DNA from: Candidatus Moraniibacteriota bacterium
GTDB lineage: Bacteria > Patescibacteriota > Minisyncoccia > Moranbacterales > UBA11712
DNA: 64,000 nucleotides
Reading direction: 5' to 3'
NCBI GenBank assembly: GCA_030679895.1
Contig: JAUXSN010000039.1
Location: 34,128 to 98,127 of the forward strand
The stretch's first letter is position 1. Each line of letters begins with the position of its first letter. A program made the translations under genes and the position numbers. Under the pieces are notes generated by a model. It did no database searches. It was not told the DNA's origin and was given only the letters and a program-made list of their open reading frames with translations. Shown in pieces: positions 1,171 to 39,537 of the stretch.

Positions 1171-4100
1171 ATGGCTGCGCAAAATAAGAAAACAATTCTC
1201 ATGATAACAATTGCAGTTCTGATATTATTGGTAGCTGCTTTTTCGTACCCATTTGGCAAGAGAGTCCGGGACATGATGTATACAAACTCTCGTCCTGTTG
1301 AATATGGCAAGGAGGTTATATATTCATATATCGAAGAAGGTGACATTCGTGTTGCAGACGAAATTTCTGAAAATAAATATGAAGTAAGTCGTTTCCAGCC
1401 TGTTCAAATTGACGAGTTAAAATGGAAAGAAGATCCATTTTCTGATTTATATTGGCGCTTCAATTTTTATAATCTGGAGCCTGTAAGAAATCTTCTTTTT
1501 GCTTGGGGGAAAACGGATAATCCGAAGTATAAGGATAAGTTAATAGAAATCACTGAATCATTTATAGATAATGGCATGAACGGACCATATTCTTGGGATT
1601 ATCACGGCGCGTCATTCAGAACCATGACACTTATTAATGTAAGGGAAAAACTTCGCCAAAAAAACGAATTGCCGGCTGACCTGGATAAAAAAATTATTGA
1701 TGCGCTGAAAACTCACGGAGACTTTTTGGCCAACCCAGATCATTTTGAAAAGGACTATAATCACGGTCTTGATCAGGCTGCCGCGCTGTATCTTCTAGCT
1801 GTCAATTATCCAAAACTGTCAGGGGCGGATGTTTGGCTAAAGCTATCTTCTGAACGAATGGCGGGGGTACTTTCTGGAATCATTGATGATGACGGAATCT
1901 TGGTTGAAAATTCTCCCTATTATCATCTTTATGTTCTAGAAAAAATATTGGACATCGATAAATATTTGAAAAAAAATAATTTAGCTATTAAAGGTTTTTC
2001 TGACGAGAAGGTGGACAAAATGGTGTCTTATGCTGTTTATATGTTACAACCCGATTTGAATGTGCCAACAATTGGCGCTTCTATCACGAGGCAGATTGGC
2101 TTGTCGGGAATATATAAAGAAATTGCAGCATCCCATCCGAATCTACTATATGTTTTGACACAAGGCGCCTACGGTGAAAAACCTTCGAACCTGAATGTCC
2201 AGTATCCAGTCAGTGGCGAGACCATAATGCGTTCTGGATGGGGAAGAGGAAAAGATTATATAAATCAGACCCAGCTTATTTTTGATGCAGGCAATTACAG
2301 GACCAATCACAGTGATCTTGATGCGCTTAGCTTCAATTTATTCAGCAAGGGTGTTGCATTGATGCCTGACGCAGGTCTTTATTCCTATGAACCGGGACCG
2401 TATCGCTCATATTTTCATGGTACAAAATCTCACAATACCGTCGTTGTTGATGGAAAAGATCAGAGTGTGGGAGATATAGCAACCTCGATGAAGGCTTCTC
2501 ACGGCTCTTTTCAGGAAGGACCTGGCTATGTTTATCAGTCTGGAGAGAGCAATCTTTACGCCGGAGTTTCTCATGAAAGAGCTGTTGCAATGATTGAGGA
2601 TTCCACGATACTTATATTTGACAACCTTAGATCATCTTCTGACCATACGTATGAGCAAATGTTTCACATTTTTCCAGATGCTAAAGTAAGTTCAGATGGG
2701 TTGACTTTCACAGCGCAAGGAGATAAACCCGAGCAATTATTAACTATAAAGCAATTTATTACTGACGGAGTCGAATTGCATACAACCATCGGTGATCAAA
2801 ATACGCCAAATAGCCTTTGTTCGTCTGAGTATAATAAGGCGCTTCCTTGCCATGCCCTTTCATATACTCAAAAAGGAAAACATGTCTCTTATGTAACAGC
2901 AGTCAGTATTGGCAAAAAAAAGACAGAAATTAAAGCAGAAAAAGACGGAGAAACTTTGACTATTAAGACAGATAAAGGTGAATACACTATAAAAATAAAC
3001 GAAGTGATGGGCGCGGAAAGAAAAACAGAAGTAGATAAAAAAAATGATGCATCTGCGATTTATTCAGAAGCTCAATCGAGTAGCTCGCTGAATATACCAA
3101 ATGAATGGAAAAATGTTACTGGATTTAATGGAGGTTCGGTGGCTGTCGACGGGAAGGAAAATAGTTTGGAAATAATGACACCCTTGGATGGATCAATAAT
3201 TGATGCGGTGAAAACTGCCAATCTGGATTTATCAAACAAAAATATATACTTCAAAATTAAAATTGACAAAACTTCAAACTTGCAAGGGATTGATATTGGC
3301 CTTTCAAATAATAATTGGAAAACAGATGCCAGATATAATATTGACGAAGTATTCAACTACCAATTTGCAAACAGAGAAAGCGATTGGTTACAATTCGGAG
3401 TCGGAAAGAGCGGTTTGCGGAAAGAAGAATTGGGGGGTTGGATAAAAAGCTCCCCATATTTTGACTGGTCAAGAGTTGACGCTGTAAAAATCACTGCTAG
3501 ATCAAAGCAGGGGCAACAATCCACAATAAATATCAAGGAATTCATATTGGTTCCTGATCAAAAGGAGGCTCGCGCGGTTATTGTATTTGATGATGGTTGG
3601 TCTTCAGTTATGGATGCGGCTACGAGTATGAACAAATATGGCATCAAGGGTAATGTCGGTGTTATAACTAACAGCATTGGAAAAAACAGCTATCTGACGC
3701 TGGATAATTTAAAAGAGCTCCAAAATAATTATGGCTGGAACATAGCGAACCATTCAAGTCTCCATAAAAATGCCTTTAACGATTATGAGTCTAACAATAA
3801 TTTGCAGGGGCTTGATGACGATGTGGTCGATGCCCTCCAATATTTGATTCAAAATGATATCAACTCTGCCCCCAACTGGTATATTTACCCAGATGGCAGT
3901 ACTGATGGTTCTATCAAAAAGATAATTAGTAAGTATTATAAATTTGGACGGGCGACATCGGGCATAACGCAATTATTCCCTTTTTCTGAGCCGCTCGAAG
4001 TGGGAGTATTTCCAGTATACAGTGATCGGGCTACGCCCGCCGATGTTCATAGCGCCATTAGCGATGCTATAAAGTACAACCAAACAATTTTCCTAATGTT

Positions 4101-4455
4101 TCACAAAATTTCAGAAGAGCAGCCCTCAATGTTCACAGAAGTTTCACAAAATGATTTTGACACAATTATAAACGACATAAATGCGCAAGGCATAAAAGTA
4201 GTTACTTTATCTGAACTAGATAAAGAAAATAACATACCGGAAACAGAATTTATGCTGCATTCCGCTGTTCCGGGGCAGATTAAATTAGATGTTTCCTCAA
4301 AGCGCATGTCCAATATATTCAGTTATGCTATACTCCAAATATGGGAATATCTAACAAATTCCGGAAAAAGCCTGGCTCAAGGCTTAAAATATATTTATTT
4401 TTTCTCTTTGTTGGGATTATATTTGGATCATCCTACTTTATTTTCATATTTTTAA
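1171..4455 (+). CDS. Multidomain exopolysaccharide-modifying protein: N-terminal TM anchor, heparinase II/III-like (alginate-lyase-like) domain, C-terminal polysaccharide deacetylase (CE4/NodB-like) domain
   Basis: The N-terminal hydrophobic segment is ILMITIAVLILLVAAF. DYNHGLDQAAALYLLA and NHSDLDALSFNLFSKGVALMPDAGLYSYEPGPY match the Hepar_II_III signature H.H.D..SF....G. The C-terminal VIVFDDGWSS...NHSSLH resembles CE4 deacetylase motifs. The gene starts 4 nt after the GT2 stop. Confidence 0.7.
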   Translation: MAAQNKKTILMITIAVLILLVAAFSYPFGKRVRDMMYTNSRPVEYGKEVIYSYIEEGDIRVADEISENKYEVSRFQPVQIDELKWKEDPFSDLYWRFNFYNLEPVRNLLFAWGKTDNPKYKDKLIEITESFIDNGMNGPYSWDYHGASFRTMTLINVREKLRQKNELPADLDKKIIDALKTHGDFLANPDHFEKDYNHGLDQAAALYLLAVNYPKLSGADVWLKLSSERMAGVLSGIIDDDGILVENSPYYHLYVLEKILDIDKYLKKNNLAIKGFSDEKVDKMVSYAVYMLQPDLNVPTIGASITRQIGLSGIYKEIAASHPNLLYVLTQGAYGEKPSNLNVQYPVSGETIMRSGWGRGKDYINQTQLIFDAGNYRTNHSDLDALSFNLFSKGVALMPDAGLYSYEPGPYRSYFHGTKSHNTVVVDGKDQSVGDIATSMKASHGSFQEGPGYVYQSGESNLYAGVSHERAVAMIEDSTILIFDNLRSSSDHTYEQMFHIFPDAKVSSDGLTFTAQGDKPEQLLTIKQFITDGVELHTTIGDQNTPNSLCSSEYNKALPCHALSYTQKGKHVSYVTAVSIGKKKTEIKAEKDGETLTIKTDKGEYTIKINEVMGAERKTEVDKKNDASAIYSEAQSSSSLNIPNEWKNVTGFNGGSVAVDGKENSLEIMTPLDGSIIDAVKTANLDLSNKNIYFKIKIDKTSNLQGIDIGLSNNNWKTDARYNIDEVFNYQFANRESDWLQFGVGKSGLRKEELGGWIKSSPYFDWSRVDAVKITARSKQGQQSTINIKEFILVPDQKEARAVIVFDDGWSSVMDAATSMNKYGIKGNVGVITNSIGKNSYLTLDNLKELQNNYGWNIANHSSLHKNAFNDYESNNNLQGLDDDVVDALQYLIQNDINSAPNWYIYPDGSTDGSIKKIISKYYKFGRATSGITQLFPFSEPLEVGVFPVYSDRATPADVHSAISDAIKYNQTIFLMFHKISEEQPSMFTEVSQNDFDTIINDINAQGIKVVTLSELDKENNIPETEFMLHSAVPGQIKLDVSSKRMSNIFSYAILQIWEYLTNSGKSLAQGLKYIYFFSLLGLYLDHPTLFSYF

Positions 4456-5336
4456 ATTTGAACCATCGGCTCTCAAATTCAACTACTGTTGATTCCGTAA
4501 CTCAAGGTTTAGTAGGCGCGGATTATATCATTGATCCAATTAATGAAAATAACATTAAAATGTTGTATCCAACGAAAGAAAATGGACGCGTCTGGAGCGC
4601 AAAATGGTCAAATGGAAATAAGGAGACCATTGCAAGCGGAGAACGCGATCCTTTTGATTCGGAGTTTATTGCGCGGGGAAACGGCGATGTCTCTATCGAT
4701 GGTGACGGTGTAGCGCAACTTCAAGGAGATTCTCCAAGAATGTATATCTACGATCCTGCCAAGGATAAAAAATGGAATAATGTTGAAGTTACCGTTTATG
4801 CCAAACGCATATCGGAAACGGAGTCGGTGAGCTACCAGGGGATAGTAATCGGTGCGAGAAGCGAACATCAGGATGCAACCCTAAAAAAACCCTGTCTCGG
4901 CGCGACATATTATGGAAGATTGCTCTATGATGGTCGGGCAGTTTTTCAAAAAGAAGTGATTCATGAAGGCGCATATAGCACCAATAAGCCATCAGAAAAT
5001 AATAAAGCGAAATGGAATACCCCCAATGGAACAATGCCAAAAAATGAGTGGATTGGAGTCAAATTTATTGTAAAAACTAACCCAGACGGAAAGTCAGTAA
5101 AACTAGAGCTCTATAGGGATTTAACAGATGGAAAAGATGGAGGAACATGGGAAAAAGTTGCTGAATATAATGATAACGGGAAATGGTCGCAAACAAACTC
5201 TGGCGCTGATGTCAAAGAAAAGTGCGGTTATCAGGCAAATAAAGTACTCTTAAAATCTGGCACCTCGGTATTTATTAGAAATGATAAAATAAAAAATGCG
5301 GAATATAAGTTATTCAGTATTAGAGAAATAGATTAG
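4341..5336 (+). CDS. Hypothetical membrane-anchored/secreted protein
   Basis: There is an N-terminal TM segment (IYLFFLFVGIIFGSSYFIFIFL) and no recognisable catalytic motif. The called start overlaps the upstream gene by 115 nt, and the next in-frame ATG (4560) lies after the TM segment, so the start is uncertain. Confidence 0.5.
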   Translation: MGISNKFRKKPGSRLKIYLFFLFVGIIFGSSYFIFIFLNLNHRLSNSTTVDSVTQGLVGADYIIDPINENNIKMLYPTKENGRVWSAKWSNGNKETIASGERDPFDSEFIARGNGDVSIDGDGVAQLQGDSPRMYIYDPAKDKKWNNVEVTVYAKRISETESVSYQGIVIGARSEHQDATLKKPCLGATYYGRLLYDGRAVFQKEVIHEGAYSTNKPSENNKAKWNTPNGTMPKNEWIGVKFIVKTNPDGKSVKLELYRDLTDGKDGGTWEKVAEYNDNGKWSQTNSGADVKEKCGYQANKVLLKSGTSVFIRNDKIKNAEYKLFSIREID

Positions 5337-5362
5337 TTTTTCTAAAGCTTCGCCTTAATGAC

Positions 5363-5390
5363 GCTTCCCAACATCCGATGTTGGGAAGCG
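5363..5390. terminator. Perfect palindromic hairpin (cgcttcccaacatc|cgatgttgggaagcg) immediately after gene 4341-5336
   Basis: A 13-bp inverted repeat sits 27 nt after the stop codon. Its stem sequence CCCAAC..GTTGGG is related to the dispersed REP-like palindromes. Confidence 0.5.
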
Positions 5391-5841
5391 ATTCAGATTC
5401 TTCTTGCAGCTTCTCTTAATTATGCCATAAAATTGGTGAAGGGGTGAAGTTATCCACATATTGGCTTGCTTTTTGCGGCACAGTTTGCTTTTATAAAGAC
5501 AGAAACAAAAAAGAAAAAAGAAGATTTTCAGGAAGAGGACTTCTTTTTATTTTGCAAAAACAATAAAAACAATGCTTATGCTCAATAAAAAGCATAACTT
5601 AAAAAAGGCCGGTCTAAAGTTGTCACAATAGTGGCGGGTTTGGATTGGCTTTTTTGTTTTCTCAAAATTCAAATGGGAAAATAAAAATTAAGCAGCTGAA
5701 TAATTTATGCCCTCTTAACGAGGGCGGTCTGGAGGAGGGCCTAAAAGATTTGTTGCTTATCAAAAAAAAGCCTTGAAAGGTCGAAGGCGACTGGCTGCCT
5801 CAAATGCGGGAAATAATAATTGGTAAAAATTAATTAAAACT

Positions 5842-6408
5842 ATGAAAAATATAATCAAAAGTCTGGTGATTGTCTTCGCCGTCGCGGCGGTGGCAAGCGT
5901 TGCGACTTATGCTTACTTTTCAAGTCAAGCAACGGTAACAGGCAATACTTATTCTACTGGAACGCTAGAAATTAGAGTAAATGGGCAGCCTTCAATAGCT
6001 GGATTTACTGCATCAAATATGGCGCCTGGCGATTGTAAAGCAGGAGAATTTACAGTAATGAATTATGGAGCGCCTTGGTTTGGTGGCCCAAGCACATTAA
6101 CCGCTGAAGAGCTTGTTATAAGCACCAATAATTTTGGTGGCGATACGAGTGGTTTATGTAATGCGCTAACAGCTGAAATTCAGAACTGTGCAGGGCCATG
6201 CGAAACCGCATATGCTACCGGACCAGTAAACGCTGTAAGTGAGGAAGATCTGCTAATGTCATGGTTTTCAAGTGGATTGGCTGCTGGAAATTCTGAAATT
6301 ATAAAATACGATGTGTGCTTGCCAGATACAGGTTCTGCTCAAGATTCATTACAGGGCAAAACTTGTACATTTGACTTTGTAGTTGACGCATACAACCCAA
6401 AAAGATAA
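5842..6408 (+). CDS. TasA/camelysin-like secreted fibre subunit with SipW-cognate-type signal peptide
   Basis: The N-terminus MKNIIKSLVIVFAVAAVASVATYAYFSSQATVTGNTYSTGTLEI fits the A.F.D....N.F..GTL pattern of TasA/CalY signal regions. An AGGTG-like RBS lies upstream. A paralog is at 6505 and a SipW peptidase at 7178. Confidence 0.65.
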   Translation: MKNIIKSLVIVFAVAAVASVATYAYFSSQATVTGNTYSTGTLEIRVNGQPSIAGFTASNMAPGDCKAGEFTVMNYGAPWFGGPSTLTAEELVISTNNFGGDTSGLCNALTAEIQNCAGPCETAYATGPVNAVSEEDLLMSWFSSGLAAGNSEIIKYDVCLPDTGSAQDSLQGKTCTFDFVVDAYNPKR

Positions 6409-6447: not shown

Positions 6448-6504
6448 ATGAGAGCGAGGATTTTGAAGCTCGCGAAACAAAAATAAAAGAAAGGAGGTGA
6501 AAAA

Positions 6505-7113
6505 ATGAAAAATATAATTCGAAGCTTGGTAGTTGTCTTTGCCGTTGCGGCGATTGCCGGAAGCGCGACATATGCGCTTTATCACGCGGAAGGCACAGTT
6601 TCTGGCGTAACCGCTTCAGCCAGCGATATGGATCTGAAGATAGATTCAAATCCGGATCCGAGTGGGTATAATTGGTCGGATGGCTTTGCCGTCACCAACG
6701 CGCAACTTGAAGCGCTGGGGCTTGACAGCTTGAAGCCGGGCAGTCATGGCCAGCAGATATTCGACATCAAAAATGTTGCAGGCGATGTTGATGGCGCTGC
6801 CTCAATAAAGTTGCATAGGACGTCTGCATGGAGCGATCTTGTGAACAACCTAAGGTTCACTGTATATTTCGATCCTGATAACAACGGAGCCTTTGGATCA
6901 GCTCTTGTGTCAGGCACTCTGGGTGAATTCGAGGGCAATACTTATACTCTCGGTCAGATCGTAGGTACTGCAACCCAAGAAAATACAGGTGGCGTTTTGG
7001 GAAAAAATGCTAGTGTCAAAATAGAATGGGACATTCCGAGTACTGCCGGAAACGAGATAATGGGAGACAGCGTCACATTTGACATCACTTTTGGTCTTGA
7101 TCAGACTCCATAA
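6505..7113 (+). CDS. TasA/camelysin-like secreted fibre subunit (paralog)
   Basis: MKNIIRSLVVVFAVAAIAGSATYALYHAEGTVSG is near-identical to the signal region of 5842. A strong RBS (aaaggaggtg) lies upstream. Confidence 0.65.
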   Translation: MKNIIRSLVVVFAVAAIAGSATYALYHAEGTVSGVTASASDMDLKIDSNPDPSGYNWSDGFAVTNAQLEALGLDSLKPGSHGQQIFDIKNVAGDVDGAASIKLHRTSAWSDLVNNLRFTVYFDPDNNGAFGSALVSGTLGEFEGNTYTLGQIVGTATQENTGGVLGKNASVKIEWDIPSTAGNEIMGDSVTFDITFGLDQTP

Positions 7114-10871: not shown

Positions 10872-10907
10872 ATAACCAGCCAAAAATTAGTTTTATAAAA
10901 TAAATTT

Positions 10908-10947
10908 CAAGAAAAACAACCCCGACGTTGCATCGGGGTTGTTTTTT
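10908..10947. repeat. Repeat family C copy 1: caagaaaaacaacccc-N-ggggttgttttt terminator hairpin
   Basis: A long GC stem is followed by a T-run. The conserved flanks are shared with copies at 12627-12660 (degenerate), 14688-14734 and 15710-15749. Confidence 0.7.
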
Positions 10948-11099
10948 GTTAACCTTGTAAAAAATCCCCACCAGGGGCGGGGATTAGTTTAGAGGATTGG
11001 GAATTCTGTGATATATTTGGATTAGCAATGGCAATGATTTGATGCTATAGTTAAATCTGCCTTGTATTTAAGGCTAAACTCTAGCGAGAATGCAATTCT

Positions 11100-12590
11100 A
11101 TGAATGATGATTTGAATATTTTTTTAGCAAAATTTGATATATCGGAGAAGGACTTTGAATCCACAAATTTGAAGTGGGAAGATCTGCAATCCATAAAAGA
11201 AGATTATAAAAAAATCAAAAAAGAATTATATCTTATCGCCAGGTATATAGAGGAAAAATTGCACACTTTGGACATAGTGCATTCAGTCAGATATAGGATA
11301 AAAGACTCCGAACATCTTTTAGCCAAGATCATAAGAAAGAAAATTGAGGATCCGCATCGCGAGATCACGATCCGCAACTATAAATCTTCGATAACGGATC
11401 TAATCGGGATAAGAGCCATTCATCTGTTCAAGGAAGACTGGGTGTTTATTCATAAATTCATAGAGGAAAATTGGGATTTGAACGAGCAACCACTTGCTTA
11501 TATTAGGGAAGGAGACGCAGCTCCTTGTGTCGAGGAATACGAAAAGTATAAATGCAATATCGAATTGCATCCCCATGGCTATAGGTCGGTTCATTACCTG
11601 ATCCGCTCATGTCCCGGCAAGGATCCCTATATTGCTGAAATACAAGTCAGAACTATTTTTGAAGAAGGATGGAGCGAAATAGATCATACGATAAAATATC
11701 CCAGTAACATCGTTAATCCTCTATTGAATAAATTTCTTGATACATTCAATGTGCTGGCCGGGAATTCTGATCAGATGGGATCTTTTGTGAGGCGCTTGAA
11801 AGATGATTTGCTGAAAGGCACAGAAAAGATTGAAGAGTATGAAAAATTGACCGAAAAGAATACGGAAATAATCAATGATCTGCAGAAAAGAATCGCGGGA
11901 ACCATTGGCGAACTCAATTCCAAGATCCGAAATGCCGAATCAAAAATAAATGCTTTGACCTCTCGCGGAATTGCCGCGGAACCATTCAAGAATATTCTCA
12001 GCGAAGTGAGGGTCAAAGCTTCCAGATTTGAGCTAATGATGGCCGCCAATCCTCATGAAGCGGCAAATCTTCTCGAATCAGCCGAACAAAAACTGGAACG
12101 ATTGGAAAAGTTGCTCGAGATGACTATCGAAGAAGATAATCATGCAAATAATACTGATGATAATAGCGAAGAAGAAGCCGGTTCTTATAAAAATAATGTC
12201 AATCGCTTCATTCATAACTTGAAAACCATAGCGGAGCTGGAGGGAAGCATTGCGCCCAAAACGCTAACGAATGTGGAGGGGCAGGCTGATTCAGGGGCAA
12301 AAATTGAAAACGCAGTCAATGAGATCAGCAGTAGAAGCGGATTTGCAAAATTTCTTATCGGGCCAAAATATAAAGGCATCAAATCTTTGAATGTTGAGAT
12401 AGTTGCCAATCAAGCAAGAATCAAGACTCTGACTGACGCAGCGAATTCGATAACTGATCCTGCCGTGAAGTTTGTTCTGCAGAAGCAAATTGGTCTGTTC
12501 ACTCGCGAGAACAATAAGCTGCGGGCGTTTGTTGCCAAAAGAAAGCGAAGCGCAAGTTTGTTCGGGTGGGCGGCCAAGCTATTTAATTAA
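11100..12590 (+). CDS. RelA/SpoT-domain nucleotide pyrophosphokinase (small alarmone synthetase / toxSAS-like) with ~270-aa C-terminal coiled-coil extension
   Basis: The synthetase-domain motifs are intact: HSVRYRIKDSEHLLAKIIRK, ITDLIGIRAIHLF (Asp retained), HGYRSVHYL and AEIQVRTIFEEGW (catalytic Glu retained). The C-terminal half has heptad-like K/E-rich repeats. Confidence 0.7.
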   Translation: MNDDLNIFLAKFDISEKDFESTNLKWEDLQSIKEDYKKIKKELYLIARYIEEKLHTLDIVHSVRYRIKDSEHLLAKIIRKKIEDPHREITIRNYKSSITDLIGIRAIHLFKEDWVFIHKFIEENWDLNEQPLAYIREGDAAPCVEEYEKYKCNIELHPHGYRSVHYLIRSCPGKDPYIAEIQVRTIFEEGWSEIDHTIKYPSNIVNPLLNKFLDTFNVLAGNSDQMGSFVRRLKDDLLKGTEKIEEYEKLTEKNTEIINDLQKRIAGTIGELNSKIRNAESKINALTSRGIAAEPFKNILSEVRVKASRFELMMAANPHEAANLLESAEQKLERLEKLLEMTIEEDNHANNTDDNSEEEAGSYKNNVNRFIHNLKTIAELEGSIAPKTLTNVEGQADSGAKIENAVNEISSRSGFAKFLIGPKYKGIKSLNVEIVANQARIKTLTDAANSITDPAVKFVLQKQIGLFTRENNKLRAFVAKRKRSASLFGWAAKLFN

Positions 12591-12592
12591 AG

Positions 12593-12622
12593 TTTCGCCA
12601 AGGTCGAACCTTGGCGGGAAAT
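12593..12622. repeat. Repeat family A copy 1: tttcgccaaggtcgaaccttggcgggaaat hairpin directly after a stop codon
   Basis: The stem is 8 bp (cgccaagg/ccttggcg). Copies at 14555-14584 and 17401-17431 carry a compensatory base change that preserves pairing. Confidence 0.7.
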
Positions 12623-12733
12623 CGAAACAACTCTGTCACTCGCGCGATGGGGTTGTTTTTTCATTTCCAAAAATTAAAATATCTTGAAGATAAAAATTTG
12701 CTTTTGCATAATAGAATATAGGCTTGTATCCCG

Positions 12734-12754
12734 CCCCAACATTCAATGTTGGGG
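12734..12754. repeat. REP-like palindrome ccccaacattcaatgttgggg
   Basis: A 10-bp inverted repeat belonging to the same family as the CCTAACATT(C/G)AATGTTAGGG copies at 15760 and 63808. Confidence 0.7.
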
Positions 12755-12826
12755 TAATGAACTCTGGGAATTCACCTGCCAAGTTATCCACAGTATGCAA
12801 TTTAGACAGGACAAGCGAAAAGGAGT

Positions 12827-14551
12827 ATGATACATACAGCGATAAAAATTAAAAATAAAAGCATGAAAAAAACAGCAATGTTTGCGCTTGCGTTTGTTTT
12901 TCTCCTTGGGACAACAGGCGTAATCGCAAAAAACAACGGAGACGGCAAGAATTTTCACAAGCCTCTCCAAGTGAACAAGGAGAAAGTGAAGCATTTTGCA
13001 AAGAAACCGATTTCTAACAGCGACCGGAAAAGAGGGGATTTGCTCGAGGAGATGATAATCAAGGAAAAACCCGCCAACGTTAAACCGGCACCCACCGATC
13101 CCACTTCCGGAGGAGTGACCGGAAATCTGGGTGACCAAATGGAACCTGGCGAAGGCAAAAAATATGCCATCGTGATCGGGCTTGCCAACTATCCCGGGAC
13201 GAGCATAGTCGAAAGCGACGAGATCCTCCCTGATTTGTGCGTATCGCCAATCGCGGAAAATGACGCTTCGGTATATGAAGGGACGAACGAAGTAAAAGCC
13301 AACTGCAAAGACGGTGACAGCGTGAATATGGAAAAGACTTTGATCGAAAAATACGGCTTCGCGCCGAGCAATGTTTTTCGCTTGAGCGATTCAGAAGCCA
13401 CATTTTCTGCAATCGAAGAAAAAATAATGTACTTAGTCGGAGGAATAGATAGCAAGGAATTTAATCACACAGGAATTTTGAAACCGGAAGACGAATTAGT
13501 ATTCTTTTTCAGCGGTCATGGAGCTTTGAGTGAGGATGATAGTATTGATGGGGACATTGACGAAAATGACGATGGAGGCATTGTTGTCTATGACGAAGAG
13601 TATAGTGATGATTCATACATGAGCACAGATCCTGCGTCTACGTACGCAGCAGACTATAACAAAAATGGCTATAGTGACAGTGCCTACATCTGGGACGGCC
13701 AATTGCGAGCGTGGTTTGCGAACGCTGCCACTGACCGGATTTTCTTCGCCTTTGACACCTGCCGCGCGGAAGAAATGGATGATTTGGTATGGACGGATAT
13801 CTATAGGACCACAAAGGAACCAGACCGCGTTCTCGCTTTCTCCAGCGGGAAAGAAGAAAGTTCCTATACCTACTATCTCGGTGGGGCCAATAATAGTGGC
13901 AATATTCACGACAGCGAAGGCCTATTCTCGCACTATTTCGTTTTGCGGGCGATGTATGACGGATATGCGGACGGATTCAATCCCATCAATAAACGGAGCA
14001 AGGATCCTCTCAAATACGACGGCAAGGTGGCAGTGGAAGAAGCTTTCAGCTATGCCTATCCGCTGGTGAGAGAAGCGTCAAGCAATAACCAAACGCCGCA
14101 TCTCGATGATCTTTTCACAAATGACCTTCTGTTGGGAACGCCGCCGGAATTGGTGAAAACTGTGTATGTTTACGCAAACAATAGCGAAGAAACAGCACCT
14201 TATACTTTGAAGAGCGGCGTGAAATATCTTCTGGAAGCAAGCAAAGTTGCCGCAGCCGACGAAACTAACACGATTCGTTTTGACGCCAAATATTCAACCA
14301 ATACCACGACTGGTCTTTGGACAGATCTGGTTGATCAATCTTATGCGGACGCTACAATCTATCCAACGCTTTTGGAATTGTTTATGAACGACGCATCTGT
14401 CGATTGGGGAGAATACAACGACGAACATAAGTACAGAAAGGAAGTGACTGGCAGCGACTCTTTGCTCCCCTCCGTGAACTTCAAAATCAACGACACTGAT
14501 TATTCTGACAACAGCGAAGAGTTGCTAGTTAAAATTTATCAATTAGACTAA
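12827..14551 (+). CDS. Secreted clan-CD cysteine peptidase (caspase/metacaspase-like, C14)
   Basis: A signal peptide (MKKTAMFALAFVFLLGTTGVIA) is followed by KKYAIVIGLANYP, FFFSGHG (catalytic His) and FAFDTCRAE (catalytic Cys), which are typical of Peptidase_C14. The start may instead be the internal Met at 12863. Confidence 0.6.
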   Translation: MIHTAIKIKNKSMKKTAMFALAFVFLLGTTGVIAKNNGDGKNFHKPLQVNKEKVKHFAKKPISNSDRKRGDLLEEMIIKEKPANVKPAPTDPTSGGVTGNLGDQMEPGEGKKYAIVIGLANYPGTSIVESDEILPDLCVSPIAENDASVYEGTNEVKANCKDGDSVNMEKTLIEKYGFAPSNVFRLSDSEATFSAIEEKIMYLVGGIDSKEFNHTGILKPEDELVFFFSGHGALSEDDSIDGDIDENDDGGIVVYDEEYSDDSYMSTDPASTYAADYNKNGYSDSAYIWDGQLRAWFANAATDRIFFAFDTCRAEEMDDLVWTDIYRTTKEPDRVLAFSSGKEESSYTYYLGGANNSGNIHDSEGLFSHYFVLRAMYDGYADGFNPINKRSKDPLKYDGKVAVEEAFSYAYPLVREASSNNQTPHLDDLFTNDLLLGTPPELVKTVYVYANNSEETAPYTLKSGVKYLLEASKVAAADETNTIRFDAKYSTNTTTGLWTDLVDQSYADATIYPTLLELFMNDASVDWGEYNDEHKYRKEVTGSDSLLPSVNFKINDTDYSDNSEELLVKIYQLD

Positions 14552-14554
14552 CGC

Positions 14555-14584
14555 TTCGCTAAGGTTCGACCTTAGCGGGAAAAT
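14555..14584. repeat. Repeat family A copy 2 (cttcgctaaggttcgaccttagcgggaaaat)
   Basis: Lies 4 nt after the stop of 12827-14551. The stem cgctaagg/ccttagcg covaries with copy 1. Confidence 0.7.
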
Positions 14585-14664
14585 AGCCGAAAGAGTTCCG
14601 ACATGGGGTCGGGACTCTTTTTCTACTTGGAAACTCGGTTTCCAAGTAAATCGTCCTTGATTTT

Positions 14665-14683
14665 CCTAAAGTTAAGCTTTAGG
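14665..14683. repeat. REP-like palindrome cctaaagttaagctttagg
   Basis: CCTAA..TTAGG arms surround a 9-nt loop. The same family occurs at 39538/39561 with the loop in both orientations. Confidence 0.7.
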
Positions 14684-14687
14684 AATT

Positions 14688-14734
14688 CAAGAAAAACAAC
14701 CCCTTTGCTCGCGAGCAGAGGGGCTGTTTTTGTT
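14688..14734. repeat. Repeat family C copy 3 (caagaaaaacaacccctttgctcgcgagcagaggggctgtttttgtt)
   Basis: The flanks are conserved, the middle varies with compensatory changes, and a T-run follows. A TATAAT-like -10 box lies about 15 nt downstream. Confidence 0.7.
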
Positions 14735-14779
14735 ACCCGCTATTTATGATATAATATAAAAAAAATCGAATAATAAACT

Positions 14780-15478
14780 ATGTCCGATGACAATCAAAAG
14801 ATAATTGAAGAAGCTGAAGCGTTTATCAAAGAGCACAAGAAAAGTCTGATTGCTCGCTTTGCTGATCCGGAAAAGTATCATTCAGTTGAACATCCGATTT
14901 CGCTTTTTATGGCTGGCTCCCCAGGCGCTGGCAAGACCGAAGTTTCCAAGCGGCTCATTGAGCAGTTCGCTGACAACGCTCCTGTAAGAATTGATGCGGA
15001 TGATATCCGCGAAATGTTTCCGAGCTACACTGGCGTCAATTCGCATATTTTCCAGCGCGCCTGCACGACAGGCGTCAATAAGCTATTCGATTATGTTTTG
15101 GATCACAAGCTCAATGTCATCCTGGATGGAACTTTCGCCTATGAGCGGGCGATGGAAAATATCGAGCGGTCTTTGAAGCGCGATCGGCGCGTTATCATCT
15201 ATTATCTTTTTCAGGATCCGGTCATCGCTTGGAAATTCACCAAAATTCGCGAGGAAACCGAGGGTCGCCGGGTTTCAAAAGAAGTTTTTATTTGCTCTTT
15301 TCTCCGTGCTCGTGAAAATGTAAATGAGGCCAAAGCGCATTTTGGCGAAAAAATTGAATTAAACATGATTATCAAGGATTTCACCAACAATTTCGAGAAA
15401 GTTTTTTCGAATATTGGGAGTATTGATAAATATCTGCCAAGGGTGTATACTAAAAACGAACTTGAAAAAATATTATGA
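14780..15478 (+). CDS. Zeta-toxin family P-loop kinase
   Basis: The Walker A motif MAGSPGAGKT, the RIDADDIRE region and DGTF match the Zeta_toxin (UNAG kinase) fold. The protein is 232 aa long. Confidence 0.7.
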   Translation: MSDDNQKIIEEAEAFIKEHKKSLIARFADPEKYHSVEHPISLFMAGSPGAGKTEVSKRLIEQFADNAPVRIDADDIREMFPSYTGVNSHIFQRACTTGVNKLFDYVLDHKLNVILDGTFAYERAMENIERSLKRDRRVIIYYLFQDPVIAWKFTKIREETEGRRVSKEVFICSFLRARENVNEAKAHFGEKIELNMIIKDFTNNFEKVFSNIGSIDKYLPRVYTKNELEKIL

Positions 15479-15660
15479 TCAAGAAAATAAAAAGCTATTT
15501 TTGCCCCAAACGCGAAGAGAAAAAGGATTTTTCTTCTTTTTTTAACCGTGCCTCAGAAGCGGAAAAGCGAAAATTGATGGAAGATGTCGCCCGAAAAGCC
15601 AACGAAGATCAGCGGAATTTGATCGAGCGATACGAACGAACCAACCACAAAATCGCCTAA
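15475..15660 (+). CDS. Small K/E-rich protein translationally coupled to the zeta-toxin gene (candidate antitoxin/partner)
   Basis: The ATG overlaps the zeta stop (ATGA). The product is a 61-aa charged, predicted helical protein with no homology I can recognise. Confidence 0.35.
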   Translation: MIKKIKSYFCPKREEKKDFSSFFNRASEAEKRKLMEDVARKANEDQRNLIERYERTNHKIA

Positions 15661-15685
15661 GATATTCTTTTTGACATTAATTTTT

Positions 15686-15705
15686 CCTAAGTATTTAGCT
15701 CTAGG
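15686..15705. repeat. REP-like imperfect palindrome cctaagtatttagctctagg
   Basis: CCTAAG..CTAGG arms; directly abuts family-C copy 4. Confidence 0.5.
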
Positions 15706-15709
15706 AATC

Positions 15710-15749
15710 CAAGAAAAACAGCCCCGCCTCACCGGCGGGTTGTTTTTTT
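15710..15749. repeat. Repeat family C copy 4 (caagaaaaacagccccgcctcaccggcgggttgttttttt)
   Basis: Conserved flanks and a T-run. Confidence 0.7.
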
Positions 15750-15759
15750 ATTAACCCAT

Positions 15760-15779
15760 CCTAACATTCAATGTTAGGG
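15760..15779. repeat. REP palindrome cctaacattcaatgttaggg (plus adjacent half-copy aatgttagggtg)
   Basis: A perfect 9-bp inverted repeat with near-identical copies at 63808-63827 and 12734-12754. Confidence 0.75.
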
Positions 15780-15877
15780 TAAATAATGTTAGGGTGAATA
15801 GGTGAAAATCTTGATATTTTGGCTCGGACGTGCTATCAAGTGTCTATCAAACCTATGCCGGGGAGGGCAAATTCATT

Positions 15878-16621
15878 ATGAAAGTAAAGGCGGTTTTGGC
15901 CGGATTCTTCGTGATTTGCGGCTTATTGTTCTTTAACAAGCCCGTAATGGCGGGTTATCAACTCAATAAAGGCCAGCTGGAGCGGGAAATCAGCGCGGCT
16001 GGGCTGCGGCTTATCGGCGAAACTGATTATTATGGCGTTCCGTGCCTTGAGGTGGAGCTTCCGCTTGACGAAGCGATTTTTCAGATCTGCCGGAAAGTTC
16101 CGACGCTGAACGCGTTCTATCTTGAAACGCGGGAAGCGATCGCCATTATGAATGGCCTCAATCCTTTTTATCCGCGGAGCCAGCGAGGCCGTCAGTTCGA
16201 TACGGTCAGAAAAACCATCCTGATTCCGCTGGATACGACCATCCAGCCCAAGCTTTTTCCTTCATCCAACGGGAACTTCGCGTCATACGCCCAGGCTATT
16301 TTTGTGGACCGGGAGAAACAAGCGCTGGCTTATTATGAACACGGCCAATTGGTTGCCTGCTTTCCCGTTTCCACGGGCCGTTCCGGAAAGGGAACTCCAG
16401 CCATGCAAGGCTGGATAAAGCTCAAGGACGAGGACCATATTTCTTCAATCTATGACGTCCTTATGCCGTTTTCACTATTACTGGCAAGCCCCTATTTTGT
16501 TCACGCAGGCGTAATGCCGGGGATGCCGGATTCAGCCGGATGCATTAGGATGTTCACGGAGCATGCCAGATGGCTTTTTGACCGAATTGAAAGCCGGAAA
16601 ACGCGGTTCAAAGTGGCTTGA
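15878..16621 (+). CDS. L,D-transpeptidase (YkuD-domain) protein, secreted
   Basis: VSTGRSGKGTP, HAG and SAGCIRM (catalytic Cys) are present. The start was moved to MKVKAVLAGFF (signal peptide), which follows GGAGGG. Confidence 0.65.
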   Translation: MKVKAVLAGFFVICGLLFFNKPVMAGYQLNKGQLEREISAAGLRLIGETDYYGVPCLEVELPLDEAIFQICRKVPTLNAFYLETREAIAIMNGLNPFYPRSQRGRQFDTVRKTILIPLDTTIQPKLFPSSNGNFASYAQAIFVDREKQALAYYEHGQLVACFPVSTGRSGKGTPAMQGWIKLKDEDHISSIYDVLMPFSLLLASPYFVHAGVMPGMPDSAGCIRMFTEHARWLFDRIESRKTRFKVA

Positions 16622-16655
16622 GAACAAAATCTCAATTTTGATCCGGAGGAAACAT

Positions 16656-17399
16656 ATGAAAGCAAGACTGATGATTTTTTTGTTCGCTGTCATCGCAGTA
16701 GCGCTTCCGGCCACCAACTCGCTGGCCGATTACCAACTTGACCCGAACCGGCTCCGGGCGGAACTGGCCGCGGCGGGCATCAAAGCGGGGAAACTGGGGA
16801 AAATCAGCAACATTCCCTATTTGGAAGTAGCCTTTCCAGACGGGAAAAGCGTTGACGATCTCTGCGAGATAATTTCCTCGCTCAAGGAAAATATGCCCGA
16901 GACGCGGTTGGTCATCGCCATTTCCAACCGGCTTCATCCTGATCTTATCCGGGGAAAGGAAGGCGAGCCTTTTACCACCGAACTCCGGTGGCTGAAGGTC
17001 GTTCTGGACACGAAGGTCAAGTCCAAAAATATCTTTCCCGAGTTTGACGAAAAACTGGCCGGGAAAGAGAGTCATTTCATCATTGACTTGTCGAAGCAGG
17101 TTATGACCCTCTATGAATTCGGGCAGATGACGCTCTTTCTTCCTGTGTCAACCGGAAAACCGGGCCGGGAAACGCCCAAAATCAGCGGGGTGGTTCAGGG
17201 AAAGGCCGCGGATCTCTGGATCGAAAAGTATCAGGTCGCGATGTCCTGGGTGGTGAAGCTTTCTCCAACAATATGCGTTTACGGCGGGCTGATGGACGGG
17301 ATGTTCACCACTGCCGGCAGCGTCAAGACCTACCCCAGCGAAGCGGAAAAGCTTTTCCGTCTGGCGAAGGTGGGCGTAACCAGCTTTGAAGTCCGCTAG
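16656..17399 (+). CDS. L,D-transpeptidase-like paralog with Cys-to-Ser substitution at the catalytic position
   Basis: GGAGG lies 6 nt before ATG 16656. The N-termini align with the paralog (DYQLDPNRLRAELAAAGI versus GYQLNKGQLEREISAAGL). VSTGKPGRETP is conserved, but the SAGCIRM position reads TAGSVKT. Confidence 0.55.
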   Translation: MKARLMIFLFAVIAVALPATNSLADYQLDPNRLRAELAAAGIKAGKLGKISNIPYLEVAFPDGKSVDDLCEIISSLKENMPETRLVIAISNRLHPDLIRGKEGEPFTTELRWLKVVLDTKVKSKNIFPEFDEKLAGKESHFIIDLSKQVMTLYEFGQMTLFLPVSTGKPGRETPKISGVVQGKAADLWIEKYQVAMSWVVKLSPTICVYGGLMDGMFTTAGSVKTYPSEAEKLFRLAKVGVTSFEVR

Positions 17400-17400
17400 A

Positions 17401-17431
17401 TTTCGCCAAGGTCGAATCTTAGCGGGAAAAT
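17401..17431. repeat. Repeat family A copy 3 (tttcgccaaggtcgaatcttagcgggaaaat)
   Basis: Lies 2 nt after the stop of 16656-17399 and has the same 30-nt consensus as copies 1 and 2. Confidence 0.7.
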
Positions 17432-17486
17432 AAAAAAACTATCAGGGAGGTGCGGATCGTTGAAGGACGAATGCCATCCATGTTGC

Positions 17487-17518
17487 GGGGGAAGCCGAGT
17501 CTTCCCCTGTTTTTTTTT
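17487..17518 (+). terminator. Rho-independent terminator (ggggaagccgagtcttcccc + T9)
   Basis: A 7-bp GC stem with a 6-nt loop is followed by nine T residues. Confidence 0.6.
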
Positions 17519-17661
17519 AGCAGCTCGTTTTTCGGCGGGCTGTTTTTTTGTTCTTTAATTTAGGGAGGGAAAAATATTGTTTATTTTATTTTCGCGTGCT
17601 ATTATATTTTCGTTATAAATATTGCAAAAATATTTGAAAGTTGCCGTATTTATGCTAAGAT

Positions 17662-17734
17662 GCCGTTGTAGCTCAGTTGGCAGAGCGCATCCATGGTAAG
17701 GATGAGGTCCGCGGTTCGATTCCGCGCAACGGCT
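17662..17734 (+). tRNA. tRNA-Thr (anticodon GGU)
   Basis: The cloverleaf was folded by hand: acceptor gccgttg/caacggc, D arm gctc-agttggca-gagc, anticodon arm catcc-atGGTaa-ggatg, T arm cgcgg-ttcgatt-ccgcg. The 3' end has no encoded CCA. Confidence 0.8.
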
Positions 17735-17779
17735 CATGCGGAAAGATTTAATAAATAATTAATAATAACTAATAAAAAA

Positions 17780-24696: not shown

Positions 24697-24736
24697 GCTT
24701 CCATCCTAAGATCCGATCTTAGGATGGAATAAATCT

Positions 24737-25402
24737 ATGCGAAAAGAGCGATTTTTTGAAGATCAATATTACCACATATTTAACAGAGGAACAGACAAGA
24801 GAAAAATATTTCTGGATGATTTTGATTATCGCCGCTTCTTACTTTCTATGCGGCTTATGAATGACGAAAAAGACGGTTTAATGATCCGATGGAGAGATTA
24901 TAAAAAAACTTATTCCAGTTCGACGGTCGAAGCTTTCCTAAGATCGGATCTTAGGAAAAGAAATTCACTGGTTGAAATTGTTTGTTTTTCTCTTCTTCCT
25001 AACCACTATCATTTCATTCTGAAACAGCTGGCAAGAAATGGAATTGAAAAGTTTATGCAAAGAATTGGAATAGGATATACGATGTATTTTAACAAAAAAT
25101 ATGATCGCAGCGGAGTTTTGTTTCAGGGAAAATGCAAATCTAGTCTTATCAAAGCGACTCATCACCTTCTTTACCTTTCTGTCTATGTGAATTGCAACGC
25201 GGAAGTGCACGGTATCGCGAAAGCTGAAAATTATCGTTGGAGCAGTTTTTCTAATTCTATAAATAGAAGCAAGGATAATATCTGCAACGGAAAAGTGATA
25301 TTTGATAATTTCAAGGAAAGTGAAGATTATAAAATTTACGCAAAGGAAAATGTAGAAGCGATGAAACAAAAAAAAGAGGACGAGAAATTAGTCTTGGAAT
25401 AG
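24737..25402 (+). CDS. REP-associated tyrosine transposase (RAYT; IS200-like HuH Y1 transposase, COG1943-like)
   Basis: YYHIFNRGTDKRKIFLDDFDYRRFL matches the COG1943 N-terminus. LLPNHYHFIL carries the HuH motif. The downstream GYTMYFNKKYDRSGVLFQGKCKS contains the candidate catalytic Tyr and an RxG..Q motif. Confidence 0.7.
   Translation: MRKERFFEDQYYHIFNRGTDKRKIFLDDFDYRRFLLSMRLMNDEKDGLMIRWRDYKKTYSSSTVEAFLRSDLRKRNSLVEIVCFSLLPNHYHFILKQLARNGIEKFMQRIGIGYTMYFNKKYDRSGVLFQGKCKSSLIKATHHLLYLSVYVNCNAEVHGIAKAENYRWSSFSNSINRSKDNICNGKVIFDNFKESEDYKIYAKENVEAMKQKKEDEKLVLE
24937..24955. repeat. REP palindrome cctaagatcggatcttagg located in-frame inside the RAYT ORF
   Basis: The 25-nt string agctttcctaagatcggatcttagg is identical to the copy at 25401-25425. 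It encodes AFLRSDLRK within an extra segment of about 25 aa, relative to typical COG1943 proteins, between the N-terminal motif and HuH. Confidence 0.65.
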
Positions 25403-25608
25403 CTTTCCTAAGATCGGATCTTAGGATGGAATTTGCCAACAAAAAAAGCCTTCTTTCGAAGCGCTTGAAAAATAAAGATGTGATCCGGAAGAGCCTCATG
25501 GCTCTCCCGGATCGGAACTGCAAGACAGGAAGGATTTTGAGATGTTATCTCTGCCCGGAAGTCGGTTCTCCGGAAAGATTCCTTACCGTCTTTTACTTCG
25601 GCAGGGTG

Positions 25609-29036: not shown

Positions 29037-29268
29037 TGATTGCCGGCTTGGAACTTTTTCCAAGCCTTTAAATCCTCATAAATGAGGTGGAAACAGTTTT
29101 TTTAAAAACTGAATACGTGAATAAATGAACAAATTCTCCCCGCCAAAGTGGCGGAGGAGGATTGAGTATAAGTCAAACCATGGCTCCGCCTGCGGCGGAT
29201 GCCTAAAAAATTTCTTGCGACTCGTTAGTTTTTCCAAAAAGAAAACAAAAGCAAGGTTTTTCGCAGAA

Positions 29269-32387: not shown

Positions 32388-32876
32388 TCAGTCCCCGGAA
32401 CGTGTCCCGTGGATGATAATTTTGGTCTTGCCCTCCTCCGCCCAGTCGAACAGCCGGACAATCTCGGGCCGCGTGACATGGACGCATCCGTTGGTCGCGA
32501 GCGCGCTTCTTCTCTTTTTGGGATTTAGGTGCTCTTTTGGAGGCACTTCTCCCTCATGAATGGCCTTGCGGTCGCCATTCCAAATGAAGAAAAGAGAATA
32601 GGGCATCCAAGTGTTGTGGGTCTTGGAAAAATAGCGCCGTCTTTTTTGGACAACAACATATTCTCCCGGATCGGTTATTTTGACGCCATCACCCGTAATG
32701 ACGTTAAAATCGAAGAGCTTTATCCCGTTTTCGTAGGCTGTTCCCGTCTGGGTCAACTGGTTGATGAAAATCACCTTGCCTTCTTTTGGAATTGAAGGTG
32801 AATTTTCCCCGAAAGCCGGCAAAAATCCGACAAGTATGAATAAAAGAACAAAGGCTATATTCATGATTTCCCCCAA
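32388..32876 (-). CDS. L,D-transpeptidase (YkuD-domain) protein
   Basis: An N-terminal signal/TM is followed by HG...GCVHV, the catalytic His/Cys pair of the YkuD fold. Confidence 0.6.
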   Translation of the reverse strand: MGEIMNIAFVLLFILVGFLPAFGENSPSIPKEGKVIFINQLTQTGTAYENGIKLFDFNVITGDGVKITDPGEYVVVQKRRRYFSKTHNTWMPYSLFFIWNGDRKAIHEGEVPPKEHLNPKKRRSALATNGCVHVTRPEIVRLFDWAEEGKTKIIIHGTRSGD

Positions 32877-39407: not shown

Positions 39408-39537
39408 TACCATGTTCGAGGTGAAATCTCGACAAACCAGAAGGGTACCGGAATAGCGGACCCTTCTTTTCTTTATCAATTTTGATTTTTTTGATGAGAT
39501 GGGGTAATATGAAAATACTAAAAGTGCCAAGAGTTAT

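Follow-up and report, generated by a model that had tools for sequence, protein, structure and literature searches.

The 64,000-nucleotide stretch of contig JAUXSN010000039.1 analysed here (the window), from assembly GCA_030679895.1 of a Candidatus Moraniibacteriota bacterium, carries between about 10.9 and 17.6 kb a series of accessory genes separated by recurring hairpin-forming repeats. These genes code for a RelA/SpoT-domain protein, a caspase-family protein, a zeta-toxin-domain kinase with a partner, and two L,D-transpeptidase paralogues (LDT1 and LDT2). What are the hairpins between them? In the initial annotation, three repeat families were distinguished, namely family A, family C and palindromes resembling repetitive extragenic palindromic (REP) sequences, and their layout was likened to that of integron cassettes. 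Our analysis favours another answer, which we consider probable. The hairpins would be REP-type palindromes, belonging to a superfamily linked to genes of the REP-associated transposase RayT, together with one family of terminators; they would lie in a variable accessory region and would not be the ends of cassettes. The window is 43% G+C and nearly all of its genes are on the plus strand. Contigs compared with it are referred to by L numbers.

Family A is defined by the motif TTCGCYAAGG-N6-CTTRGCGGGAAA, of which the window holds exactly three copies; sequence shuffles predict none. The copies lie on the plus strand at 12593-12621, 14554-14583 and 17401-17430, behind stop codons at 12588-12590, 14549-14551 and 17397-17399. 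Three post-stop copies had been reported at a spacing of 2-4 nt; the copies stand, and the measured gaps are 2, 2 and 1 nt. Copy 1, the hairpin TTTCGCCAAGG-TCGAA-CCTTGGCGGGAAA behind the RelA/SpoT gene, has a folding energy of -17.4 kcal/mol (z -3.8) and a covariance model score of 51.7 bits. Copy 2 follows the caspase-family gene and is found at the same place in a 71%-identical orthologue on contig L035. The stem of copy 3, behind LDT2, is a hybrid in which one C.A mismatch and one G.U pair occur. The compensatory change noticed earlier between copies 1 and 2 (GCCAAGG/CCTTGGC versus GCTAAGG/CCTTAGC) is real.

The alignment and the covariance model were made from the three window copies and five metagenome copies. 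They describe a 12-bp hairpin in which 92.7% of the cells are paired and two pairs show changes on both sides. U.G pairs occupy two stem positions in seven of the eight copies, and the extended stem forms on the sense strand only. Between the window and L035, 30 of 32 nt of family A are identical (94%), as compared to 77% identity in the adjoining caspase coding sequence and 58% in the upstream spacer, showing that family A is constrained or homogenised. The proposal that the hairpins are under structural constraint is therefore upheld by the paired cells, the two-sided changes and the conservation in L035. Scanning metagenomes gave five genuine copies (L011/L014, L017, L019, L020b), with a sixth, L020a, on the same contig as L020b. 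Their loops differ (TTGAA, CTAAG, CTTAG) and the open reading frames (ORFs) beside them are unrelated (a 143-aa ORF of unidentified family, GIY-YIG). The L019 copy shows a partial tandem duplication. On contig L020, family A stands beside CATT-like and AAAG-type palindromes.

A probable key to the origin of these hairpins is a RayT-like Y1/HUH transposase gene (24737-25402, plus strand), located about 7 kb from the repeat-rich region and associated with palindromes from 24699 to 25426. Its cognate palindrome, TCCTAAGATC-n-GATCTTAGGA, is present in three copies, one 7 nt ahead of the ATG (24699-24729), one in frame within the gene at +197 (24934-24958), and one 3 nt past the stop codon (25406-25426). 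The ORF matches Pfam Y1_Tnp weakly (E 2.5e-4, below the gathering score, which many homologues pass) and also NCBIfam REP_Tyr_transpos (E 1.4e-5, below the cut-off). The 220-aa protein carries an HUH (NHYH) motif and a conserved Tyr, and it has an insertion and a long C-terminal helix. With its AlphaFold model (pLDDT 87.7), the top fold match in the PDB was 4ER8 (E 1.7e-6, TM 0.65), the E. coli REP-associated tyrosine transposase (TnpAREP) bound to a REP hairpin. IS608 and ISDra2 TnpA (2VJV, 2XMA and others) ranked behind it. The protein is 100% identical to one from a Candidatus Moranbacteria metagenome-assembled genome and has more than 1400 homologues, mainly in Moranbacteria and Patescibacteria, some of them named 'REP element-mobilizing transposase RayT' by JGI.

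Seven RayT genes from five genomic contexts were compared (window, L028, L031, L032, two in L033, L034). Each has a palindrome type of its own on both sides. One copy lies 6-12 nt ahead of the ATG; the other is only a few nt from the stop codon, and in six of the seven genes it is 2-8 nt past it. The type varies from one paralogue to another and is matched per gene. All seven also contain an in-frame third copy, at +197 to +205 of the ORF, that co-varies with the flanking copies. We know of no such internal palindrome in described RAYTs. The in-frame palindrome encodes F-L/P-R-x-x-L-R/K/G-K, a peptide present in about 100 of the 120 best homologues and doubled in a few of them. A genome may hold several RayT paralogues: L028 and L034 come from one assembly (GCA_003489455.1), and L033 has two RayT genes. 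In the 64-kb window, a search for a second RayT gene found none. The gene is at the same syntenic place in L027-L031, with orthologues 78-79% identical, and therefore behaves as a resident gene rather than as a hopping insertion sequence (IS).

Family A and the RayT palindromes share the frame GC-TTC..CTAAG-(7-9 nt, self-complementary)-CTTAG..GGAA, and the frame of the whole superfamily, 19-31 nt long, reads (stop)-GC-TT(T)C-..CYAA[G/C/A]..-loop-..TTRG..-GGAA. We used a covariance model built from family A only. After its own copies, the next-best matches in the window were the RayT-internal palindrome (24926-24961, E 3.6e-5) and the RayT-downstream one (25396-25434, E 1e-3), followed by CATT palindromes at 15750 and 63797 and by the RayT-upstream copy. 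On the other loci, the model retrieved the true family A copy of L035 and then RayT-linked palindromes. In L032, the RayT palindrome TTTTTAAGG-ttcgg-CCTTAAAAA has a family-A-like core that is almost the same. At the level of sequence, the comparison shows family A and the CCYAA..TTRGG palindromes to be sub-types of one lineage-wide superfamily tied to RayT-like genes. The label 'REP-like' was well chosen: the window itself also holds a RayT-like gene together with its cognate palindromes. Among the hallmarks of RayT systems, a Y1/HUH enzyme of the TnpAREP type, flanking cognate palindromes and inverted doublets are present, and the GTAG/CGTC tag is absent.

The other palindromes are spread over the window. 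Besides the RayT-flanking pair and one borderline case, the 14 extragenic palindromes include 11 dispersed copies of other sub-types. The 19-nt CCYAA-N9-TTRGG form has ten copies; outside 10.9-17.6 kb it is found at 5367, 24705, 24937, 25407, 39538/39561 and 63808. The palindromes announced within the region, at 12734, 14663/14665, 15684/15686 (imperfect) and 15760, were all recovered and are far above chance. Two of them are of the CATT type: CCCCAACATT-c-AATGTTGGGG (12734-12754), upstream of the caspase gene, and CCTAACATT-c-AATGTTAGG (15760-15778), which is followed by a partial extra half-site (15786-15794). A third CATT-type palindrome, outside the region, is at 63808-63826. A palindrome that had been overlooked, TACTTGGAAAC-tcg-GTTTCCAAGTA (14624-14648), is of the same type as a doublet in L034 (7045-7082). 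Outside the region are also a CATC-type palindrome, CGCTTCCCAACATC-c-GATGTTGGGAAGCG (5362-5390), the palindrome GGCTTGGAA-cttt-TTCCAAGCC (29045-29066), 8 nt past a stop codon, and an AAAG-type inverted doublet (39534-39583) resembling the REP doublets forming hairpins known as REPINs. Further inverted doublets of this kind are that of L034 and those of L031 (18352-18400) and L033 (6902-6948, 15294-15338). The L034 doublet and the first L033 doublet lie within annotated coding regions (a topoisomerase I gene and a DUF2341 gene, respectively). Directly before the CATC palindrome at 5362-5390, and 12 nt past the stop codon of ORF 4341-5336, positions 5348-5356 read AGCTTCGCC, the 5' half of family A; this may be the remnant of a replaced family A copy.

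Two features of the distribution are statistically supported. Six of the 14 extragenic palindromes begin within 10 nt past a plus-strand stop codon, as compared to an expected fraction of 5.3%, the share of such places among intergenic positions (binomial P=4e-5). In addition, the region accounts for 1157 of the 7932 nt of intergenic DNA and for eight of the 14 palindromes (odds ratio 7.8, P=2.7e-4). The question whether the repeats are enriched around accessory genes or generic thus has a double answer: the region is truly enriched, and the elements are generic to the genome and occur outside it as well. Apart from family A, three window palindromes lie 0-8 nt past a stop codon. Relatives have stop-adjacent palindromes too, in L031 (9965, 10669, 18354), L033 (6770, 13092) and L038 (7492). 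The flanks read (stop)-(A/C)GC-TT(T)C. In L020, two ORFs end at a stop codon that comes from a palindrome (451-473 and 105-129); one of these ORFs resembles a truncated Zn-ribbon gene.

Family C is of another nature. Its 5' motif, CAAGAAAAACARCCCC, occurs in the window only at 10908, 14688 and 15710 (0.14 expected). Four sites had been assigned to the family; these three stand, and the hairpin at 12627 (12624-12661), behind family A copy 1, matches the 3' half GGGGTTGTTTTTT only. A fifth member that had not been listed is at 17519-17552. The sequence GGGYTGTTTTT has five copies, all on the plus strand, one per large intergenic space of the region and none elsewhere in the 64 kb. All five members fold as strong hairpins (-14 to -25 kcal/mol, z -4.2 to -5.9) with a run of 5-7 T behind each, downstream of genes and on the sense strand, as in intrinsic terminators. 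Terminator 1 (TTCAAGAAAAACAACCCC...GGGGTTGTTTTTT, 10906-10950) stands behind a 359-aa gene. Terminators 3 and 4 belong to composite modules. At 14661-14735, the REP-like hairpin TTCCTAAAG-ttaag-CTTTAGGAA precedes the terminator, and this module is the left copy of a direct repeat bracketing the zeta operon. At 15682-15750, the imperfect REP-like hairpin TTCCTAAGTA..CTCTAGGAA does so, in a module 84% identical to 14661-14703. Terminator 5 (17519-17552, ..CGGCGGGCTGTTTTTTT), family C-like, lies upstream of a tRNA-Thr gene, with another terminator before it at 17485-17510. A strong terminator hairpin that is unrelated to the family is found directly 3' of family A copy 2 (14590-14620); all these terminators are on the plus strand.

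The frame of family C is T(T/C)CAAGAAAAACARCC..GGGYTGTTTTTT, with a REP-like hairpin ending in GGAAT(T/C) in front in two cases; it is conserved to a degree that a terminator alone would not require. Behind unrelated genes, family C is also found in L027-L030, in L036 (GGAATTCAAGAAAAACAACCTGCC-tcatc-GGCGGGTTGTTTTTT) and, with two copies, in L038, and modules like that of 15682-15750 are present in L036 and L038. We read family C as a putative dispersed terminator module.

The surroundings of the hairpins were compared with related contigs. Synteny with L027-L031 and L038 starts at tRNA-Thr(GGU) (17662-17735, plus strand), the left edge of the shared block. Rightwards, four related contigs share the order tRNA-Thr, p296, tRNA-Trp, p257, HlyD, ABC, two MacB, RayT and DUF4012. 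Leftwards, the contents differ, with LTD/TIG proteins in L028, alanyl-tRNA synthetase (AlaRS) and two metallophosphatases in L031, a caspase homologue downstream of AlaRS in L036, and a sortase, RelA and two small ORFs in L038. L038 comes from a closer relative and covers the same locus (HlyD 83%, RelA 84%, then tRNA-Thr). There, the segment 12591-17644 of the window, which holds the caspase gene, the zeta gene and its partner, LDT1, LDT2 and all the punctuation, is represented by 0.92 kb only. Presence/absence polymorphism of the genes thus exists at the level of the block, between species, and not cassette by cassette.

The RelA/SpoT gene is informative as to what the palindromes do at a given site. 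Homologues 72-91% identical are annotated in Parcubacteria, Nealsonbacteria, Peregrinibacteria and Moranbacteria, and the protein is 80-91% identical in L037, L038 and L039. With L037, which is not syntenic (91% aa identity), nucleotide homology extends from -57 of the ATG to exactly the stop codon, excluding families A and C. Behind that stop codon, the window has TAA-ag-family A, L038 has TAA-cg-CTTCCCAACATC-c-GATGTTGGGAA (the CATC sub-type, as at 5362), and L037 and L039 have no palindrome. Because the same site carries family A, another palindrome or nothing, the palindromes behave as independent insertions and not as cassette ends. Site occupancy varies among relatives behind RelA, and family A is retained behind the caspase gene in L035. 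The gene itself (11043-12591) shares 80-91% protein identity with contigs of other members of the candidate phyla radiation (CPR; Peregrinibacteria, Nealsonbacteria) without shared flanks, which suggests that it was moved recently, with its -10 region, by single-gene horizontal transfer.

Several other explanations have to be weighed against the REP-type reading. If the repeats were recombination sites of an integron-like or cassette-capture system, each gene with its repeats would be a mobile cassette. The region does resemble an integron in being a co-oriented array of unrelated accessory genes, in single-gene units, with hairpin-forming repeats recurring between them. Furthermore, it differs among relatives, several CPR lineages have the RelA gene at 80-91% identity, and a 44-nt direct repeat, 84% identical, brackets the zeta operon. 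attC sites are 57-141 nt long, with imperfect R''-L''/L'-R' repeats and a GTTRRRY core, and lie between promoterless cassettes. In contrast, the repeats of the window are perfect hairpins of 21-31 nt without the R''/L''-L'/R' architecture; that they are unlike attC had been said before, and nothing attC-like is present. No IntI was found, the ~68 ORFs scanned in the 64 kb giving no match to Phage_integrase or other recombinase families. Each unit has a terminator and promoter-like sites of its own, the repeats are not boundaries of gene homology (RelA homology to L037 stops at the stop codon), and elsewhere the palindromes adjoin housekeeping genes and RayT genes. Nor is the punctuation uniform: family A, supposed to bound every unit together with the two other families, stands behind three of the five units, and the CCYAA-type palindromes listed earlier occupy three of the six intergenic spaces; between LDT1 and LDT2 there are no repeats of any family. 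Mostly unsupported and already largely refuted, the cassette reading appears very improbable to us. It is even harder to believe that family A copies are att-type scars, that is, duplicated tRNA 3' ends left by successive island integrations at tRNA-Thr. The region abuts tRNA-Thr, and the loop region GGTTCGA of family A resembles, by eye, a T-arm. However, family A matches neither the 3' end of tRNA-Thr nor that of tRNA-Trp, its loop has 3-5 nt and not 7, its copies are found on contigs without tRNA, and the window ORFs scanned include no integrase. ARAGORN and Rfam find no tRNA-like element at family A; at gathering and permissive thresholds, Rfam gave tRNAs and terminator-driven sub-threshold matches only. 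The mismatch, the short loop and the lack of any ARAGORN or Rfam signal refute a tRNA-like family A and its att-scar version. A tRNA-targeting integrative island was rejected on the lack of an integrase and the dissimilarity of family A to the tRNA-Thr 3' end. There is also very little chance that the palindromes are operator sites of a dimeric transcription factor. Their dyad symmetry is perfect, and in some cases (12734, 15760) a start codon follows at a distance of 70-110 nt, but many are located directly behind stop codons, within RayT ORFs or in inverted doublets. Moreover, their inner sequence varies widely among sub-types while self-complementarity is kept, and the sub-types co-vary with the RayT paralogues.

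Two further explanations concern one family each. The similarity among family C terminators and REP-terminator modules could have arisen only locally, by duplication or by gene conversion from one intergenic region to the next, without any dispersal mechanism. In its favour, all five GGGYTGTTTTT terminators lie within 6.7 kb, and the outer frame of family C is kept where the inner stems differ. Near-identical modules (loop TCA(C/T)C, GGAATTCAAGAAAAACAAC) stand behind unrelated genes in L036 and L038, however, and a related one is found in L027-L030, so that we judge a purely local origin unlikely. A more serious competitor, possible in our view though doubtful, is that family A is a host cis-acting RNA, a hairpin of the 3' untranslated region through which translation termination, tmRNA tagging or the stability of mRNA 3' ends is adjusted, and which is selected without a transposase; it would be compatible with a REP origin. 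All three window copies have the orientation of the ORF before them, and so do the metagenome copies for which an upstream ORF could be identified; copies with a stop codon close by have it from 8 nt upstream to overlapping. The sense-strand-only extended stem with its U.G pairs (7/8 copies), the compensatory changes at two pairs and the 94% identity to L035, versus 77% for the coding sequence, point the same way. According to PMC12306157, which cites Liang, Rudd and Deutscher (2015), ribosomes of E. coli stall at REPs located at most 15 nt from a stop codon. On the other hand, the orthologous RelA site has a different palindrome or none, showing that family A is dispensable for that gene, and a sense bias is also expected from replication-strand-biased transposition of single-stranded DNA (ssDNA) when nearly all genes are on one strand.

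Several observations speak against the REP-type reading itself. The 5' tag GTAG/CGTC of classical REPs is absent, the flank being GC-TT(T)C. PDB sequence searches with the RayT-like protein and with a RayT profile were empty, and the link to TnpAREP comes from the fold search alone. The palindrome type of the window's own RayT gene (GATC) has no dispersed copy in the 64 kb, and no RayT gene flanked by family A itself (TTCGCYAAGG..CCTTRGCGGGAA) was found among the loci fetched. A pair of empty and filled sites with identical flanks was not recovered, and transposition is what we infer. The L035 identity of family A is explained no better by selfish spread than by homogenisation or by selection for a host function. 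Finally, family A is absent from 185,579 species-representative genomes, in which nine single, non-palindromic chance matches came from unrelated phyla, and its census is one of a handful of copies. A scan of viral contigs for family A gave three matches, chance ones only.

If the REP-type reading is correct, RayT paralogues would copy their cognate palindromes around the genome as ssDNA hairpins, as proposed for REP/REPIN-RAYT systems. The palindromes lie preferentially within the first few nucleotides past stop codons; as to mechanism, a short target at or next to the stop codon, with flanks TAA/TAG-(A/C)GC-TTC, may guide insertion. In the mRNA, family A would form a hairpin only 1-2 nt past the stop codon. 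If it acts as E. coli REPs do, it could obstruct the terminating ribosome, shield the 3' end, or do both. The genes of the region would be separate transcription units, their intergenic spaces holding palindromes and family C terminators. Family C would in places be fused to an upstream REP-like hairpin, in a ~75-nt module that recurs in other Moranbacteria.

Comparison with known systems shows where the present one is ordinary and where it departs from them. RAYT genes flanked by REPs have been termed 'REPtrons' (PMC8266576). Like the REP/REPIN-RAYT systems of E. coli, Pseudomonas and Stenotrophomonas, the window has short extragenic palindromes of several sub-families, as singlets and inverted doublets, and a Y1/HUH gene at a fixed syntenic place with its cognate palindrome on both sides, as in a REPtron. 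Sub-type and enzyme co-vary, the nearest fold is 4ER8, and many copies are near stop codons. The differences are the CPR host, apparently several RayT paralogues per genome instead of one, the lack of a GTAG/CGTC tag, perfect palindromes with loops of 1-5 nt, an in-frame palindrome ~197 nt into every RayT ORF examined, flanking copies 2-12 nt from ATG and stop, and a 220-aa protein with its insertion and long C-terminal helix. With IS200/IS605 elements (TnpA Y1), the system shares the HUH/Y1 fold, subterminal hairpins on both sides of the gene, and an expected ssDNA mechanism that would involve a short target 5' of the left end. It differs in that the RayT-like gene behaves as a resident at a fixed place and the hairpins are dispersed without the gene. 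E. coli stop-proximal REPs are likewise stable hairpins at most 15 nt past the stop codon. In the present case, the hairpins come closer still (1-2 nt for family A, 0-8 nt for three others), and in L020 the stop codon is inside the palindrome. As for family C, it resembles the Correia elements of Neisseria and the bacterial interspersed mosaic elements (BIMEs) of enterobacteria in being a dispersed module (~45-75 nt) whose frame is conserved and which serves as a terminator, with or without an upstream hairpin. Unlike them, it has neither terminal inverted repeats nor target duplications, and only 8-9 copies occur in the ~370 kb examined.

The genes between the hairpins, all on the plus strand, were re-examined. 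Pfam confirmed the RelA/SpoT, zeta-toxin and two YkuD domains. The 496-aa RelA/SpoT-domain protein (11100-12590) matches RelA_SpoT. The caspase-family (C14) protein (12827-14551) is without Pfam match, and its assignment as a caspase-like peptidase is borne out by homologues with PF00656 and by an identical NCBI protein named 'caspase family protein'. Its start is likely at 12864, which gives a signal peptide. A PDB sequence search with this protein yielded nothing useful. At 14780-15660, the 232-aa kinase (14780-15478, Zeta_toxin) is followed by an overlapping 61-aa ORF. The two YkuD (L,D-transpeptidase) paralogues (15830-16621 and 16656-17399) are 32% identical to each other. The second has Ser (TAGSVKT) in place of the catalytic Cys of the first (SAGCIRM) and is therefore probably inactive as an L,D-transpeptidase. 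A third YkuD gene is on the minus strand at 32388-32876. The labels 'toxSAS' and 'defence' found no backing: PADLOC, run on the proteins of the region, gave a weak caspase match only, so that 'defence-type' is an impression and not a result. A conserved motif, AAAATTGGTG-N10-AGTTATCCAC(A/T), with the DnaA-box-like TTATCCACA, lies upstream of caspase-family genes in three genomes and of a gene at 5.8 kb. The sites are at 5425-5460 and 12781-12792 in the window, ~165-200 in L035 and ~9905-9940 in L036. The motif could be a promoter or a regulator site.

Elsewhere in the window, a 54-nt direct repeat, 98% identical (52407-52460 and 59237-59290), brackets a 6.8-kb block with an SDH-type protease, small ORFs, an N6/N4 DNA methylase and a ResIII helicase. 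This block may be an inserted restriction-modification/defence island that duplicated the 3' end of gene 50489-52450. ORF 4341-5336 (331 aa, no Pfam match) overlaps by 115 nt, in another frame, the end of a 1094-aa heparinase-like gene (1171-4455), and its actual start codon probably lies more to the 3' side. Two adjacent genes, a camelysin-like M73 gene and a 202-aa ORF, share 74% identity over 76 nt at their 5' ends (5837-5912 and 6500-6575). They are tandem paralogues with a common signal-peptide region.

REP/RAYT systems are known, and their function and mode of spread are still debated. To our knowledge, they have been studied almost only in Proteobacteria. Our literature search found no paper linking RAYT or REPIN with Patescibacteria, the only co-mention of REP and CPR being incidental. 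What is unusual here is the matching of paralogues and palindromes in pairs, the in-frame copy, the missing GTAG/CGTC tag and the extreme proximity to stop codons. We tentatively raise the possibility, which we would not call likely, of an undescribed multi-paralogue REP-RayT design in Moranbacteria. In such a design, each RayT gene would have a REP within its ORF, and dispersed REPs, family A included, would be targeted to the first few nucleotides past stop codons, in some cases contributing the stop codon itself. Taken together, they would influence translation termination and the 3' ends of mRNAs throughout the genome, and would be concentrated in, and maybe promote the turnover of, the accessory region. 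The work identifies a variable stretch of accessory genes upstream of tRNA-Thr in Moranbacteria, and for annotation it warns that such punctuation should not be read as cassette boundaries or as new recombination sites. A CPR lineage with tiny genomes would offer a compact natural test set for hairpin recognition, for the choice of insertion sites and for the regulation of translation by stop-adjacent hairpins.

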